IMG/VR virus record: IMGVR_UViG_2861069343_000002
Span: 1 to 32,383 of that record
From: a virus
Taxonomy: Duplodnaviria > Heunggongvirae > Uroviricota > Caudoviricetes
Length of the DNA: 32,383 nt
Reading direction: 5' to 3' (one strand)
Positions within the stretch are counted from its first letter, which is position 1. Every line of letters starts with the position of its first letter. Shown piece by piece: positions 3,587 to 26,366 of this stretch. The translations under genes and the position numbers were made by a program. The notes beneath the pieces are model-generated. The model was given only the letters and a program-made list of their open reading frames with translations, was not told the origin of the DNA and made no database searches.

Positions 3587-6500
3587 TCAATGTTCGCTTC
3601 CTGTTAACTGCCGGACAAGTGCAACCAGTTCGCTTACCTGATTTTCCAGAGTGCTGATCCGGGTGTCTGCTGTTGCCAGATTTTCACGTAGCGTTGTGTT
3701 TTCCTCTTCCAGCGCGGTAACGCGATCATCTGTTTCACGGGCGACCTGAACAAGTAAACCCGTCACGGCGGCGTAGTCAACATTAAGATAGCGCGTTTCT
3801 TCGCGTAGCTCGTTGCCGTCAACGGTCGGGCCTTGCAACTCTTCACCGTAATGAGTAAACGATCCCACAGCTTCTGGTATCGCCTCCATTACTTCCTGTG
3901 CAATAACGCCAGCATAAGGCATCCCGTTTTCCCTGAGCGTGTAGGTGTATCCGTTCATTTTACGGATTGCTTTCGTCGCGTCGCTGATAACGAGAATATC
4001 GTCTTTAAGGTCGCGGTCTGATGACTGATTCAGCGTTGTGCAATTAATAGCGCCATTTACATCAAACAACTGGCCTGCTGACGTTTTTTGCGCATAAAAC
4101 AGATACGCAGCAGACGTGCCAACCTCAAAAACGTTTTGTCGAGTACTGGAACCCCACACCCTGATACCAACTGGTAGTTCTGAATTACCTGAATTAAGTA
4201 AAGCAAAACGATTGCCAGTCCCTGTTTGTTTTCTAATTACTAAATCGGCAGTTGAGTTAACCTCATCTTTGTTGATGGTTAGCGCCTGTGCTGTAGCACC
4301 GTTGACAGTACCGCTTAGTAGTTGCACCGCGCCATCATCGCCATTTAACAGCACTTGAGCGCTGCTTCTGTGGTTTTTAAGGCACAACATTTTTCCCGTG
4401 TTTTTCGATGTACCTACTGACCACGCCGAATTGGTTCCAGTGCTATCAACACCGCGCACAGCACAATTCATACTACTGTAATCTGACGTACTCCCCAGCA
4501 CATCAACACGCCCGCCGCCTAATTTTGATGGAGTCGTCGAGGTTAACGACCTGACGGTTACATCCTGATTCCATCCTGAAACAACTACCTGACTCCACTC
4601 CGTCCAACTTCCATTGACAACAAAGCGAACGTATATGCGTTTTGTGTCGCTGCCAATCAGCGTTTGCATGATCGCATAATCTGAACCCGTAGTTTTACGA
4701 GTAGATTCTACACGTAGCAAAAAGTTACCGCTTACGCCGTCAGGCTTATTGGTAATATATGCACCACCTGCGACAGTTTTGCATTGATAGTATTTAACAG
4801 ATCCAGCCACTGTATTAGCAATGATCAAGTCGTTTAAATCAATAGTCTTGTTGTCAATGGTTTCCGGCTCGATAGATCCCGCCATACCTGCGTTAAATGT
4901 GGCAAGGTCAGAAAAGGTTGTTTTACCGCCTACCGTCACCCCGCTATCGAGTTTTGCTTGTGTGATTACTTTGCTGTTTTTTGTGTGGTCAGAATAACTA
5001 CCAAAATACAAATCACCGTCACCAGCTATACCCAGGTATTTTTGATCAACATCATCAACCTTAAACCCAATGGACAAGTTTTTAATTGTGTTGTTGCTCG
5101 TTAAAACCAAAGGCGTATGCTGAGATCCTTTGATGCTTACCGTAGTGTTATCGGAACTGGTGCTTGTGTTTGCAAATTCTGCGGTGGCTGCGCTGATTTT
5201 GTAAGTTATTTTTAGATTGCGGGCCTCAACCCTCCCGTCGTGGCGAACAATAAAATCACCACTTGATTCACCTTTTGTGTTTTTCGCCCTGATGTGGATT
5301 TCGCCAAGTGATTCGTTGTTTTCAGGCGACCAAACAACGCCGCGCTCGCTTCCGTCGTTGTTCATGAACCACAGATGAGCGGTTCCTTTTGCTGATTTTA
5401 GCCTGATAGATGGCGTTTCTTTCAATATATCAAGATCACCAGACATAACATCGCCGGATTTTTTCACCTGCGCATCGTTAGTTACGTTGCCAAGTCCAAC
5501 ATCCGATTTCGACGGCTTGTTTGCCGAGCCGTATAGCTCATTGATGCTAAAAGTCCCGTTGTTAAGCCGGGCATCGTTGCCGGCATAGATCTTAATCTTC
5601 GCGGTTGAGTAGTCGATATTGATCGCTGACCACGTATCGCCGCACCGCGAGAATATACCAGAACCGTGGCTATAAATGGTCGCCGTGCTTCCGGTCGGCT
5701 TATCACCGCGCCAGAAATGACCACCTTTGTCACGCAGAGCTTTTAAGATCTCTACATCGCTCATCTTGCCGTTTGTTGATATCCCGCTACCGCCAAGACC
5801 GAAAGCGCCTGTAAGCATAGCATTAGAAAGACCCAAATCTGCTTTAGTCGGCTTGTTTAACTGGTCGTAAATCCTTACAACGGGGCTTTCAACATATCCA
5901 GAAGGCGCGGCGGTTTGCTTAACAAATCCGTCTGGAATGTATAATTCCGTGCGTGCCGTCTGCGCCAGTACCGCAACCTTTGCGCCGTTGATAAATGCAC
6001 GCTGGAAGGCCCAAACCTCAATAAAGCCATCATCTTTAACCAGGCCGTAACGCATTTGCATGCTATTGATTAGCCCGGTTGGCCCTAAACGGCGTATACT
6101 CAGGTAACGAGATACATTATCAGCAGTAAGCGAAGAAGGCAGACCGCGCGCCGAGATCTCGATAAAGTCAATGTTTCCGTAAGGGGAGCCGTAGTCACCG
6201 CCGTTAGTAACCATTAGCGTTACATGGCAATTGTTGCTTCCGGGATCGGAAAGTTTCGCGATCTTTATGTAAAAAGACTCATTACCAGTAACAACGGGCC
6301 AATCGTATTGCGTCATCGGGCTGACGAGTCCCCCGACCTTGTCGAGATATTCTTTCGCCTTGTTCTCTGACGCTTTAGCGTTGGTTTCGCTGACCTTTGC
6401 TGCTGACTCACTATTTTTCGCGTTGGTTTCTGATTTTTTGGCTGCTGTCGCGGAATTTGCCGATGCAGTTTGTGAGTCTGCTGCCGCCTGTGCGCTGTTA

Positions 6501-23371: not shown

Positions 23372-24313
23372 TCACCCCCTGAATCCTGCCGGGATCTGGC
23401 TGTAGTCCACGCTGTCGTAACTGGATTTGAAATACGGGTCTTCGCGTTTTTCTGTGTATGTGCTGATGGACGGCGATAAGCGCAGGGAAAGCTCATCCCA
23501 TTTTTCCCGCAGCTTCGACGGGCTGAGCACGTTACGGCACCAGAACGGATCGCGGCTGACGCGGCTGTACATCTCGCAGATTTGTTTGTGAGTACGACCA
23601 TCCTGCACACACATCAGGCGAATTTCGTTTGCCCAGGCTGTCCAGTTCGGTTCTTTGGGACGAACCACCTCGCCGTCACATTCGGCGGCCTGCTCGTACA
23701 GGGCAATGATTTTTTTCCAGAGCCACTGTGCGCAGGTCAAATCATCCTGCGTTCCCCACTGGCGCTTTTTAGGGCTGAATACAACCGCATCAGGATGGCG
23801 AGTTAAAAAATCCTGTTCAGCCGTCTGCGTGTCCGGTTGCGAAGCGTCCGGACGAGAAGGTTTTTTATCTGACGGATCATGTTTTGATTTTACTGACGGA
23901 TCCCCGCCAGATTCTGACGGGTGAAAACCCGCTTTTTTGCCAGATTTCGACGCATCAAATTTTGACGTGTCAGATTTTGATGCGTCAGATTTTGACGGGT
24001 CAGAATCTGACAGTTGAGAAAATGCCGCTGCCTGAAGCTTCGCAACGTTAAGCTGATAAACATTCGACGCATTGCGGTTACCCTGGCGACGCGCCTTACG
24101 CGTTAACCAGCCTTCTGCTTCCAGCCGTGCGATAGCCGTTCTGACGGTACTCATCCCCGCGCCAATCTGACGGGCAATAGTTTCAATTGATGGCCAGCAC
24201 ACACCTTCGTCATTACTGAAATCAGCCAGGCGGGCCATAATTGCCACGCTGGATAATTTCATGCCTGACGCAGCGCAACCATCCCATACATAGCCGGTTA
24301 ATTTAGTGCTCAT
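23372..24313 (-). CDS. Replication initiator (lambda O-like function) with winged-helix N-terminus and iterons inside the coding sequence
   Basis: N-terminal HTH/winged helix (SIETIARQIGAGMSTVRTAIARLEAEGWL); central SKSDASKSDTSKFDASKSG repeats encoded by tandem approximately 15-bp DNA repeats; SD AGAGGT before ATG 24313. Confidence 0.6.
   Translation of the reverse strand: MSTKLTGYVWDGCAASGMKLSSVAIMARLADFSNDEGVCWPSIETIARQIGAGMSTVRTAIARLEAEGWLTRKARRQGNRNASNVYQLNVAKLQAAAFSQLSDSDPSKSDASKSDTSKFDASKSGKKAGFHPSESGGDPSVKSKHDPSDKKPSRPDASQPDTQTAEQDFLTRHPDAVVFSPKKRQWGTQDDLTCAQWLWKKIIALYEQAAECDGEVVRPKEPNWTAWANEIRLMCVQDGRTHKQICEMYSRVSRDPFWCRNVLSPSKLREKWDELSLRLSPSISTYTEKREDPYFKSSYDSVDYSQIPAGFRG
23890..24013. 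repeat. Iteron array (putative phage replication origin) inside the initiator gene
   Basis: Tandem approximately 15-bp units (CAGATTTCGACGCAT, CAAATTTTGACGTGT, CAGATTTTGATGCGT, CAGATTTTGACGGGT, CAGAATCTGACAG) plus upstream CAGATTCTGACGGGT. Confidence 0.55.
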
Positions 24314-24661
24314 GACCGACCTCTATTTCCCTGAATTTACGACGAAACTGTTCGAGCGGGCTGAAGCACTCATGCTCATAGCCTTCACGGAGGTAGATAA
24401 CCCGTTGTGTTTCCGGCTCCCAACGAATGACTCTGACGGGCACTCCGTAGTGATCTTTGAACCAGCGGTTAACTTGTCGCAAAGGACTGTCTCCTTCTGC
24501 CGGTTGAAATCCCCCACAGCCCACTCAGCAAAGCTGTGGGTTACAATTTCCCTGTCACCTGGTACATTTACTGCATAGCAATACTCCACCTTCGCTTTTC
24601 CACCCGGTACAGGAAGCGCAATCAGTTGCGAGCGACGGTAGTGTGTTGTTAAACTGTTCAT
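24303..24661 (-). pseudogene. Small early gene split between two overlapping frames at a G5 tract (frameshift mutation or programmed frameshift)
   Basis: ORF 24661..~24500 (N-terminal part, ATGA-coupled to CII-like gene) and ORF 24524..24303 (C-terminal part, overlaps initiator start) overlap at GTGGGGGAT (plus-strand C5 at 24511..24515); one extra G would fuse them into a ~126 aa ORF. Confidence 0.3.
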
Positions 24662-25215
24662 GCGTTAGTTTCTCCACAACCAGAAGCAATCGACGCCACG
24701 ACGCCCGGAGCTGCACACTCGCGGGCGTCATTACTTTCTGAAACGCAAAAAATTTTGTAGACAAGTGCTGCATGCTCCTGCAGCTTCGAAATTGAGAGGT
24801 ACAGCTCGTCGTTAATTGCTGTCTTCTCATGCGGTTCCACTACACCGTCTTCGATTGCCGAACGAATCTGTTTTGAATAACTGCCGATCTGTTCAATGAC
24901 TTCCAGTAAACGCTGGTTAATATCGGCATTGTCCACATCCTCGACGTCAGGAAGAGACACAAAGACGCCATTTGCAGACTGCGCCACAGCGTCGGCAATG
25001 AAGTGAGTGCCACCAGCACGTTGTAAAATCATTGCCCATCCCAGCGGGAAAATCTGATCGCCATCGGCACGAAGGCGGTTAAATAATGCGTTCTCTGTTA
25101 CATCCAGCCACTCAGCAGCTTCAGCGTAACCCCCCGGCAACGCCGCGATAGTTTTTCTGACAGCTTTCACGTACCACTCAGGCTGTTTTTCCACTTTCCA
25201 GTGATGATTACCCAC
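24658..25215 (-). CDS. CII-like early regulatory protein (phage 186 CII-like), hypothetical
   Basis: 185 aa, GTG start with strong SD AGGAGGT; immediately downstream of cro-like gene; loose resemblance to 186-type CII. Confidence 0.4.
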
Positions 25216-25468
25216 GGCTTACCTCCTGTTCCTGTGGTTTAAACCCATTCTGGTTTTGGCTAGATTGAAAACGTGCCGGATAAAGAATCTGCATTTCGCT
25301 GATTTCACCCTTAAAAAAATTGGCCAGACGTTCTGCAAGATCGATAGATGGAATTTGTTCCAGTCTTTCAATACGACTCAGCGTCGCTGGATTGACCTGA
25401 ACGCCAGCAGCAACATGCTGCAAAGTAAATCCGTGCGCCTTACGCACATTCCGTAATGGTGATTGCAT
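25208..25468 (-). CDS. Cro-like HTH (XRE family) regulator
   Basis: 86 aa; HTH GFTLQHVAAGVQVNPATLSRIE; divergent from CI across operator region; SD GGAGG before ATG 25468. Confidence 0.7.
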   Translation of the reverse strand: MQSPLRNVRKAHGFTLQHVAAGVQVNPATLSRIERLEQIPSIDLAERLANFFKGEISEMQILYPARFQSSQNQNGFKPQEQEVSRG

Positions 25469-25565
25469 ATAACCTCCACATATTGCGTGATAAGCATATT
25501 ATTTCACGCAAATATTTTGCGCAAGTTGATTTGCTTAACGCGCAATAAAGAAATGTAATAAACGC
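25469..25565. promoter_or_regulatory. Immunity operator/promoter region (oR-like) with divergent promoters
   Basis: Repeated half-sites TTGCG/CGCAA (TTGCGTGA, TCACGCAA, TTGCGCAA, TTGCTTAACGCGCAA). Candidate pR on minus strand: TTGCGC-N17-TAATAT. Candidate pRM on plus strand: TTGCTT-N17-TGTAAT ending about 7 nt before the cI ATG (possibly leaderless). Confidence 0.55.
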
Positions 25566-26258
25566 ATGAACATAGGAAACCGAGTCAGACAACTTCGCCA
25601 GGCGAAGAACATGAAAATCGCCGATCTCGCTGAAGCAATAGGAGTGGATGCGGCGAATATCTCACGCCTGGAAACAGGTAAGCAGAAACAATTCACTGAA
25701 CAAGCCCTGAGTAATATTGCCAGGAGCTTAGGTGTTGATATTGCTGATCTCTTTACCTCAGACGTCAAAAGTAATACTGTATGTAAAAACAGTATTAGTG
25801 AGGATGTTGCGCAGGTGAAGGATGTATTCCGTATTGAAATGCTGGATGTCAGTGCCAGTGCGGGAAATGGCCTTATCCAGGGCGGTGATGTCATTGATGT
25901 GATTCATGCCATTGAATACAGAACTGATAATGCTGTATCGATGTTTGGCGGACGGCCAGCCAATCACATTAAAGTTATCAACGTTCGTGGGGACAGTATG
26001 TGTCCAACCATTGAGCCAGGAGATCTCATCTTCGTTGATGTCAGTATCAATCAGTTTGATGGAGATGGTATCTATGTATTTGGTTTTGATGATAAAATTT
26101 ATGTCAAACGACTGCAAATGATACCTGACAAACTACTGGTGATTTCTGATAACCAGATTTACCGTGAATGGGGAATTACCAGCGAAAATGAACACCGGTT
26201 TATGGTCTTTGGAAAGGTCTTAATCAGCCAGTCACAAACCCTTAAGCGACACAATTAA
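25566..26258 (+). CDS. CI-like repressor (N-terminal HTH plus C-terminal S24 LexA-like peptidase domain)
   Basis: HTH IADLAEAIGVDAANISRLETGK; C-terminal GDSMCPTI (Ser nucleophile) and VKRL (Lys); 230 aa. Confidence 0.85.
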   Translation: MNIGNRVRQLRQAKNMKIADLAEAIGVDAANISRLETGKQKQFTEQALSNIARSLGVDIADLFTSDVKSNTVCKNSISEDVAQVKDVFRIEMLDVSASAGNGLIQGGDVIDVIHAIEYRTDNAVSMFGGRPANHIKVINVRGDSMCPTIEPGDLIFVDVSINQFDGDGIYVFGFDDKIYVKRLQMIPDKLLVISDNQIYREWGITSENEHRFMVFGKVLISQSQTLKRHN

Positions 26259-26278
26259 CCCTTACCTCCTCATCAATT

Positions 26279-26303
26279 AGCCACCCAAAGGTGGCTTTTC
26301 ATT
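26279..26303 (+). terminator. Rho-independent terminator after cI
   Basis: AGCCACC-CAAA-GGTGGCT perfect hairpin followed by TTTTCATT. Confidence 0.6.
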
Positions 26304-26310
26304 ACCCTTT

Positions 26311-26366
26311 AAATTGCATATCTCGCAACAAAAACACTTGCATAATGCGCAACTTCATTTTATCTT
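26311..26366 (+). promoter_or_regulatory. Candidate oL/pL-like operator-promoter region
   Basis: Two 15-bp sites TTGCATATCTCGCAA (26314..26328) and TTGCATAATGCGCAA (26338..26352) with the same TTGC-N6-CGCAA pattern as 25531..25545; possible -35 TTGCAT / -10 TATCTT. Confidence 0.35.

Follow-up and report, generated by a model that had tools for sequence, protein, structure and literature searches.

A probable lambda-type immunity switch with promoter-embedded 15-bp operators and a predicted leaderless cI message in prophages of the ST64B/SfII/mEp460 group

The operators of bacteriophage lambda are 17 bp long and occur three in the right (OR) and three in the left (OL) operator set, with OR1 lying between the -35 and -10 elements of the promoter pR, and in phage 434 the operator has the form ACAA-N6-TTGT. 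The maintenance mRNA of the lambda repressor gene cI is leaderless, i.e., it starts from the A of the AUG without a Shine-Dalgarno (SD) sequence (PMC3293720; bioRxiv 10.1101/2021.06.29.449897). Closer to the system considered in this article is the switch of the Salmonella prophage ST64B, where the transcription start sites (TSSs) of pR and of the maintenance promoter pRM, the latter at the AUG, are listed as experimentally mapped in the differential RNA sequencing (dRNA-seq) table for S. Typhimurium SL1344 (Ramachandran et al., BMC Genomics 2012, PMC3293720, Additional file 2, Table S1). We analyzed the region around the divergent genes cI and cro in a 32,383-bp stretch of viral DNA (IMG/VR record IMGVR_UViG_2861069343_000002, hereafter the window) and conclude that it very probably holds a lambda-type CI/Cro immunity switch of the ST64B / SfII / mEp460 immunity group. 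The underlying logic is of the expected lambda type; what is new is the operator set, previously undescribed, within this known type of switch. Our searches of the searchable literature, by mEp460, SfV and ST64B and by the operator string, returned no published operator description for this immunity group.

The preliminary description of the window placed divergent cI and cro genes on the two sides of a 97-bp region, and its coordinates are correct: cro (25208..25468, minus strand) and cI (25566..26258, plus strand) are separated by the gap 25469-25565. The likeness to lambda extends beyond two divergent genes flanking a short operator region. At the predicted promoter pL, on the far side of cI and co-directional with it, there is a second set of operators; palindromic operators overlap all three promoters; the repressor is of the self-cleaving S24 type; and the maintenance transcript is predicted to begin at the A of the cI AUG without an SD. 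There are also differences from lambda. The operators are 15 bp long, TTGC-N7-GCAA, and unrelated in sequence to those of lambda, and the helix-turn-helix (HTH) domain is of the 434/Xre type; OR and OL contain two full operators each; and the promoter-proximal operators themselves supply the -35 hexamers. OR1 lies on the pR start. None of the sites has its centre at -42 of pRM, and activation is not apparent. Only ~0.8 kb separates OL from OR; OL comes directly past the cI terminator, without rex genes, and the CII protein belongs to the CP76 family of phage 186, N and CIII not being reported for SfII-type relatives.

The operators were assessed with a symmetric weight matrix that was trained on the sites of relatives only and then run over the 32,383-bp window, with 500 Markov-shuffled 32-kb sequences serving as the null. 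The relatives, whose CI proteins are 66-100% identical, were taken from phage records, IMG/VR contigs and genomes of six genera (Shigella, Citrobacter, Klebsiella, Pseudescherichia, Buttiauxella and Trabulsiella); they provided 83 distinct upstream and 116 distinct downstream variants for the analysis of conservation, and 11 representative relatives were inspected. A set of 80 near-identical viral contigs contains few single-nucleotide polymorphisms, which is insufficient for assessing site-specific constraint. The exact pattern TTGC-N7-GCAA (equivalent to TTGC-N6-CGCAA, the form used in the preliminary description) occurs only three times in the window, at 25531-45, 26314-28 and 26338-52, and a copy with one mismatch is found at 25483-97. 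The number of exact copies is unimpressive by itself (three, compared to 1.3 expected per window). The same four places are the top four matrix matches in the window, with 20.8 bits at 26338-52, 19.2 at 26314-28, 17.4 at 25531-45 and 16.7 at 25483-97, followed by a fifth match of 10.1 bits. The shuffled sequences contained on average 0.13 matches of at least 16.7 bits and at most two in any of the 500, whereas the four matches in the window fall within 870 bp and bracket cI; such a cluster does not arise by chance.

Upstream of cI, OR1 (site A, TTGCGTGATAAGCAT, 25483..25497) is centred on the pR start and is found at the same position in all 83 distinct relatives, and an OR3-like operator (site C, TTGCTTAACGCGCAA, 25531..25545), an exact copy of the motif, is likewise present in 83 of 83. 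Both sites score at least 12.8 bits throughout the 83 variants, with medians of ~20 bits for site A and ~19 bits for site C. The whole upstream layout is rigid, consisting of site A, 19 nt, the 8-bp palindrome TTGCGCAA, 6 nt, site C, 8 nt, TGTAAT, 6 nt and the ATG, without insertions or deletions in the 11 representative relatives and the 83 variants; the consensus of the relatives is TTGCG-N5-yGCAT for site A and TTGC-N6-CGCAA for site C, with 8 A-rich nucleotides before TGTAAT, and the cro ATG and its SD stand ahead of site A. Downstream of cI, where the preliminary description reported two more sites of the same pattern, OL2 (TTGCATATCTCGCAA, 26314..26328) and OL1 (TTGCATAATGCGCAA, 26338..26352; conserved, and the best match in the window) are both exact copies of the motif and lie 24 bp apart. 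A terminator followed by exactly two OL sites with centres 22-24 bp apart is found in 113 of the 116 distinct downstream variants. Half-sites and N7 spacing are conserved, unlike the central bases, and since the spacing within sites is fixed and that between the OL sites is 22-24 bp, the 15-mer itself emerges as the recognition unit. With position and half-sites kept across both sets of variants, the interpretation of the four 15-bp palindromes as OR and OL operator sets flanking cI, already put forward in the preliminary description, is supported, and CI and Cro would be expected to bind these predicted operators. An inverted repeat, GTGCGCCTTACGCAC, in the first codons of cro (25433-25447) reaches 7.9 bits against the operator matrix and carries a minus-strand terminator-like flag; relatives differ there, and it is probably a coincidence of coding sequence.

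Three promoters can be placed on this framework. The -10 element of pR, TAATAT (25496..25501, minus strand), was located by gapless alignment to the ST64B promoter of TSS P1159, which has TAACAT with the TSS 6 nt downstream, and its TTA columns are invariant. Together with TTGCGC (25524-19, minus strand) and a 17-bp spacer it forms a promoter whose start would by homology be at ~25490, the central base of site A; P1159 itself, at 2072168 on the minus strand with the promoter string CAACTTGCGCAAGTTTGCTGTATGAAATAACATGCGAT-A, maps to the central base of the first operator (PMC3293720). That OR1 ends in GCAT and not GCAA is explained by the overlap of its final two bases with the 3' end of the pR -10. 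The -10 element of pRM is TGTAAT (25554..25559, plus strand), as the preliminary description suggested: it is invariant in the 83 relatives while its flanks vary, corresponds to positions -12 to -7 of the ST64B TSS P1160, and always lies 17 bp past TTGCnn (83 of 83 variants). In the window, pRM thus reads TTGCTT (25531-36), 17 bp, TGTAAT, and by homology its +1 would be the A of the cI ATG at 25566. For pL, the predicted -10 is TATCTT (26361..26366, plus strand), 17 bp after TTGCAT (26338-43), the first six bases of OL1, and transcription is predicted to start at ~26372-26375 and to read away from cI; a TAnnnT hexamer stands 17 bp past the TTGCnn of the distal site in nearly all of the 116 downstream variants. 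The -35 TTG of all three promoters is drawn from an operator half-site. The promoters pR, pRM and pL escaped a generic promoter scan, since only the TTG of their -35 hexamers is a match.

Expression data for ST64B fit repressor-controlled pR and pL: cI is present at ~65-520 transcripts per million, mostly ~200, over the tabulated conditions; under shock with peroxide and with nitric oxide, transcripts of cro and the lytic genes increase, as do those of the genes downstream of cI. The SL1344 table also lists a weak TSS, P1161 (2071952, plus strand), 292 nt upstream of ST64B cI, which corresponds to about position 25274 of the window (PMC3293720). P1161 lies in the junction between ST64B cro and the next gene and reads toward cI, the position expected for a CII-dependent, pRE-like establishment promoter; no promoter-like match was found near 25274 in the window, which has a CP76-type CII gene there instead.

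A leaderless cI maintenance mRNA, with its predicted +1 at the A of the AUG at 25566, is strongly supported. The hexanucleotide AAACGC separates TGTAAT from the ATG, the A of which is the seventh base after the -10 element; the distance is 6 nt in 80 of the upstream variants and 7 nt in the other 3. An SD-like tetramer was not found in the 22 nt upstream of the first ATG in the window or in any of the 11 representative relatives. In SL1344, whose prophage is ST64B, TSS P1160 (2072244, plus strand) is listed as the first base of SL1344_1967, with a 5' untranslated region of 0 and the promoter string TTGCACAATGCGCAAAAAATTAATGTAATGAACGC-A (PMC3293720). The locus L003 in our collection is 100% identical to ST64B sb38/sb39, the promoter strings of P1159 and P1160 are identical to L003, and both align without gaps to the window (25516-25566 in the case of pRM). 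The leaderless cI without an SD that the preliminary description proposed is thus supported by the published start of the orthologue: the ST64B cI start maps at the ATG.

Other readings of these data have to be weighed against this one. Two GenBank records, mEp460 (L006 1246-1893) and Stx2a_1447 (L007 1246-1893), annotate cI from Met16, which corresponds to the ATG at 25611, and a weak purine-rich stretch, AGGCGAAG, precedes that codon; translation from Met16 would leave a leader of 45 nt on the message, which would then no longer be leaderless in function. We consider this very improbable. Differences in codons 2-15 are distributed 146/124/278 over the three codon positions, with 180 synonymous codon differences, and this third-position bias together with the synonymous changes indicates that codons 2-15 evolve as coding sequence. 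At codon 16, Klebsiella phage Kp4873-4 has ATT and a K. spallanzanii prophage has CTC, neither of them a start codon. The HTH starts at residues 2-5 in both Pfam and PDB alignments, and helix 1, encoded by residues 2-15, would be lost; the ST64B TSS, as tabulated, places the AUG at the extreme 5' end; and the long form is annotated in SfII, D23580 and SL1344. The mEp460 and Stx2a_1447 records almost certainly start cI 15 codons late and thereby cut HTH helix 1; the conserved start is the first ATG, 45 nt upstream. Still less probable is the idea that cI is expressed mainly from a promoter farther upstream, TCCACA-16-TATTAT (25475-25502), with a leader of ~57 nt. This is the sole plus-strand intergenic match of the generic promoter scan, but the scan produced fewer matches than shuffles did (2 vs 3.2), TCCACA is not conserved in relatives, no such TSS is listed for ST64B, the starts in the table being those at the ATG and 292 nt upstream, and the longer leader would likewise be without an SD. 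The least credible of these readings is that the repeats are mere -35 elements (TTGCnn) with chance symmetry and not operators at all. It is true that the -35 hexamers of pR, pRM and pL each fall on a motif copy; yet OR1 and OL2 overlap no -35 and are equally conserved, both half-sites are kept at exactly the N7 spacing while the central bases vary, and a stretch of 870 bp holds four matches at or above 16.7 bits, compared to 0.13 expected per 32 kb.

The middle of OR requires separate consideration. Of the at least three sites that the preliminary description counted in the 97-bp region, two are full 15-bp operators; the third palindrome is either an 8-bp element or an everted repeat. The invariant 8-bp palindrome TTGCGCAA (25517..25524) contains the pR -35 (TTGCGC, minus strand, 25519-25524) together with a perfect operator half-site, and the string TTGCGCAAGT is invariant in 83 of 83 upstream variants. 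TTGCGCAA forms the right half of a degenerate OR2 15-mer at 25510-25524, the centre of which is 21 bp from that of site C and 27 bp from that of site A. This 15-mer scores -5.1 bits in the window and is negative throughout the SfII and ST64B clades (-5 to -8 bits), while 38 of the 83 relatives have at least 8 bits at the same position, with recurring weak left halves TTACG, TAGCG and TGGCG. A weak third operator would therefore appear to be common in the family (about half of the lineages) and to have been reduced to a half-site in the present lineage. A lone CGCAA half-site in the pR spacer (25507..25511), which makes an everted repeat with 25517-21, is clade-restricted: it is found in the window, SfII and two Citrobacter prophages (L009 and L010) and not in ST64B, Klebsiella or Flotzy-type sequences. 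The resulting everted palindrome CGCAA-N5-TTGCG (CGCAAATATTTTGCG, 25507-21), which stands at an equal distance (24 bp) from both OR operators, was at first taken as OR2; as a family-wide operator it was ruled out by the missing left CGCAA in ST64B, Klebsiella and Flotzy-type sequences and by its lack of a matrix score.

It is possible, if somewhat doubtful, that OR nevertheless works with three operators as in lambda, i.e., that a CI dimer occupies 25510-25524 by means of the perfect half-site and cooperative contacts with a neighbouring dimer, from where it would help to repress pR and might activate pRM. The scores at this position in 38 of the 83 distinct relatives and the recurring weak left half speak for it, the invariance of TTGCGCAAGT exceeds what a -35 hexamer needs, and 25510-24 lies 21 bp, or two helical turns, from the operator at 25531, compared to 22-24 bp in OL. 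The window and the SfII and ST64B clades, however, have no recognisable left half. Lambda CI activates pRM from a site centred at -42, whereas the centre of this 15-mer is at about -49 from the pRM start, and cooperativity with the 25531 site would repress and not activate pRM. We can offer only tentatively the converse reading, that OR has been cut from three operators to two, with pRM self-sufficient and only negatively autoregulated and with promoters and operators fused throughout.

The repressor itself fits the lambda-type reading. CI (230 aa) has an HTH domain at residues 3-64 (HTH_3) and an S24 domain at 104-218, the presence of which had been noted in the preliminary description and is confirmed by a match to Peptidase_S24 (PF00717, E = 6e-19; 68 bits vs a cut-off of 23.3). 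The residues of the autopeptidase are Ser144 in GDSM, Lys181 in VKRL and Ala99-Gly100 in a SASA-GNG linker, where Lys181 was placed by alignment to the VKRL of LexA; together they would point to RecA-stimulated self-cleavage of CI. The recognition helix of Cro resembles that of CI (VNPATLSRIE vs VDAANISRLE). The best PDB sequence match to a phage repressor for the CI HTH is the 434-derived dh434 (E = 2e-4).

From these elements we propose the following mechanism. CI, with its 434-like N-terminal HTH and C-terminal S24 domain, would bind as a dimer to the 15-bp TTGCG-N5-CGCAA, and Cro presumably would do so too, sharing the sites of CI. On OR1, CI would block pR, which drives cro, at its start site; on OL1 and OL2 it would shut pL, the -35 of which is covered by OL1; and on 25531-45 it would compete with sigma-70 for the pRM -35 and so cap its own synthesis. 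Between the OR operators, TTGCGCAA would provide the pR -35 and one half-site. Transcription from pRM, starting on the A of the cI AUG, would yield a leaderless message that keeps the yield of repressor low, and DNA damage would lead to RecA-stimulated cleavage at Ala99-Gly100 and free both pR and pL. What the data show directly is where the sites lie, how well they are conserved and how far they exceed chance, the geometry of the promoters, the catalytic residues and, in ST64B, the starts of pRM and pR; the binding of CI and Cro to the sites, the sign of autoregulation, the cooperativity and the RecA dependence in this scheme are what we infer.

Several observations count against this interpretation. 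The TSS evidence comes from the ST64B orthologue, whose CI is 83.5% identical, and not from this phage, although the promoter elements are identical; the leaderless TSS P1160 is classed as 'secondary', with modest read counts of 59 and 218 (PMC3293720); and no pL TSS of ST64B appears in the examined part of the TSS tables of the same source. The OR2 position is unrecognisable as an operator, so that lambda-style positive autoregulation may or may not operate here. In addition, the operator at the pRM -35 scores like OR1 (17.4 vs 16.7 bits), so that tight repression of pR with an active pRM probably needs cooperativity or OL-OR looping over ~820 bp.

Among the relatives, ST64B sb38/sb39 (SL1344_1967; STMMW_20241) is an orthologous switch with the same order and spacing of OR1, TTGCGCAA, second operator, TGTAAT and ATG, and it also has two OL sites and a pL-like promoter. 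It differs from the window in the central operator bases, the pR spacer and the bacterial host, in the gene after cro, which encodes a 236-aa protein in ST64B and a CP76-type CII in the window, and in the leader of pL, which has an STnc1310 region in ST64B and an 'sRNA-17' region in the window. The ymfK (cohE)/ymfT (croE) module of e14 in E. coli K-12 is similar in layout, with the repressor gene followed by a terminator, operators and pL and with downstream ymfL and ymfM in common. A -10-like TTTAAT 6 nt before the ymfK ATG gives the same leaderless geometry and suggests another leaderless repressor message. However, the two repressors align over 39 S24 residues only, and the e14 repeats are GTAC-based and not TTGC-N7-GCAA; in the e14 locus (L002 4100-5060, minus strand), GTAC inverted repeats are found between ymfK and ymfT and past the ymfK terminator, where they overlap a strong TTGACA-type promoter. 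With only this 39-residue stretch in common and different repeats, ymfK/ymfT was rejected as a representative of the same immunity. Repressors of the 434/P22 type share with CI a five-helix HTH N-terminal domain, and 434 shares short palindromic operators with conserved outer half-sites of 4-5 bp and a variable centre, whereas the sequence and length of the half-site differ. A 42% identical 'P22 C2' proved to be the C2 protein of the P22-like phage ST160, matching mainly in the C-terminal domain and having a different N-terminal domain; it is not the classical P22 C2 and was not used as an operator comparator.

The switch belongs to a lambdoid prophage that is very common in E. coli. Copies of the 1.4-kb cro-cI-OL segment 25100-26500 with 100% identity exist in many E. 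coli chromosomes, and 1039 of 5426 complete E. coli genomes contain it at a coverage of at least 80%. The identity is 97-99% with phages PhiR63_1, mEp460, phiSTEC1575-Stx2k and Stx2a_1447 and 91% with Shigella phage SfII. The segment is thus carried by Stx2a and Stx2k Shiga-toxin phages, the serotype-converting SfII and coliphage mEp460, with an orthologue in Salmonella ST64B. Record OR845852.1 (E. coli O157:H7 ATCC 43895, EDL933-derived) matches 25100-25712 (query 1-613) at 98%; the match takes in cII, cro and OR but stops after ~49 codons of cI. The HTH domain and the operators may be exchanged as a unit, apart from the S24 domain; the break in the match could also be simply the end of this 1,554-bp record.

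From left to right, the gap is preceded by genes that all read leftward, namely those for an O-like replication protein, a ymfM-like product, a CII protein of the CP76 family (phage 186) and the cro-like HTH protein, and is followed by the rightward cI. The cro-like gene (86 aa; HTH_3, E = 6e-10) is the first gene of the rightward (lytic) operon and is annotated as Cro in PhiR63_1, SfII and Stx2a_1447. Its SD, GGAGG (CCTCC on the plus strand, 25473..25477), was assigned from sequence, and a CCTCC or CCCCC block is kept there in relatives. The CII/CP76-family gene follows cro at 24658-25215 (Pfam CP76, E = 8e-14). Past cI, the terminator scan found an intrinsic terminator for cI, a GC stem followed by a T run (26279..26296, plus strand); a stem-loop and T run follow cI in every relative inspected, and the SfII record annotates a putative rho-independent terminator at the equivalent place. 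Within the O-like replication gene (23372-24313) there is a 15-bp tandem repeat of 4.3 copies at 23941-24004 (consensus CAGATTTTGACGCGT), which resembles the iteron-type origin embedded in the lambda O gene. A tRNA-Thr gene with anticodon CGT (30940-31015) directly adjoins the gene of a 387-aa integrase (29762-30925), and this is likely the attachment site at one end of the prophage.

Positions 26401-26775 lie within a long stretch after pL that has no plus-strand open reading frame of more than 100 aa before the yfdP/yfdQ-like genes. Both primer sites of 'sRNA-17' are found here, ATTTGGTTGTAACACGGCGTAT at 26401-22 and GCTGAGAGCACTTAGCCAGTTAC as the reverse complement of 26630-52; sRNA-17 is an ArcA-regulated small RNA of 193 nt from an mEp460-like prophage of E. 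coli K1 RS218 (PMC7719688). This RNA may simply be a section of the pL leader, or else run antisense to that leader. The tRNA was the sole match in Rfam scans covering the entire window and in an E-value scan of 26260-27000, with none in the sRNA-17 region. In e14, SfII, ST64B and Flotzy-type phages an element GAACAGGCAGGACGCCCACGAAGTAGCCGCC follows pL despite the differing immunities (L001 2850-2885; L003, from ~120 nt after the cI stop; L005; L002 ~4150-4190). The window lacks this element and has the sRNA-17 region in its place. A noncoding RNA, STnc1310, is annotated downstream of ST64B cI (PMC7067206), and an Rfam scan by E-value gave only a sub-threshold STnc100 match farther downstream.

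The operator consensus TTGCG-N5-CGCAA, the promoter map and the correct cI start can be used to predict the superinfection immunity group of related prophages, and the cI start in the mEp460 and Stx2a_1447 records should be corrected. The results are also relevant to the induction and repression of toxin-carrying prophages, including Stx2 phages. The cI message would be a natural leaderless mRNA outside lambda, with experimental backing in ST64B, where the leaderless TSS is known only as a row in a supplementary table (PMC3293720). If the tentative two-operator reading of OR holds true, the switch would do without positive autoregulation and would rely on the low yield of a leaderless cI message, perhaps together with looping between OL and OR over 0.8 kb, and about one-fifth of complete E. 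coli genomes would carry a naturally simplified bistable switch.

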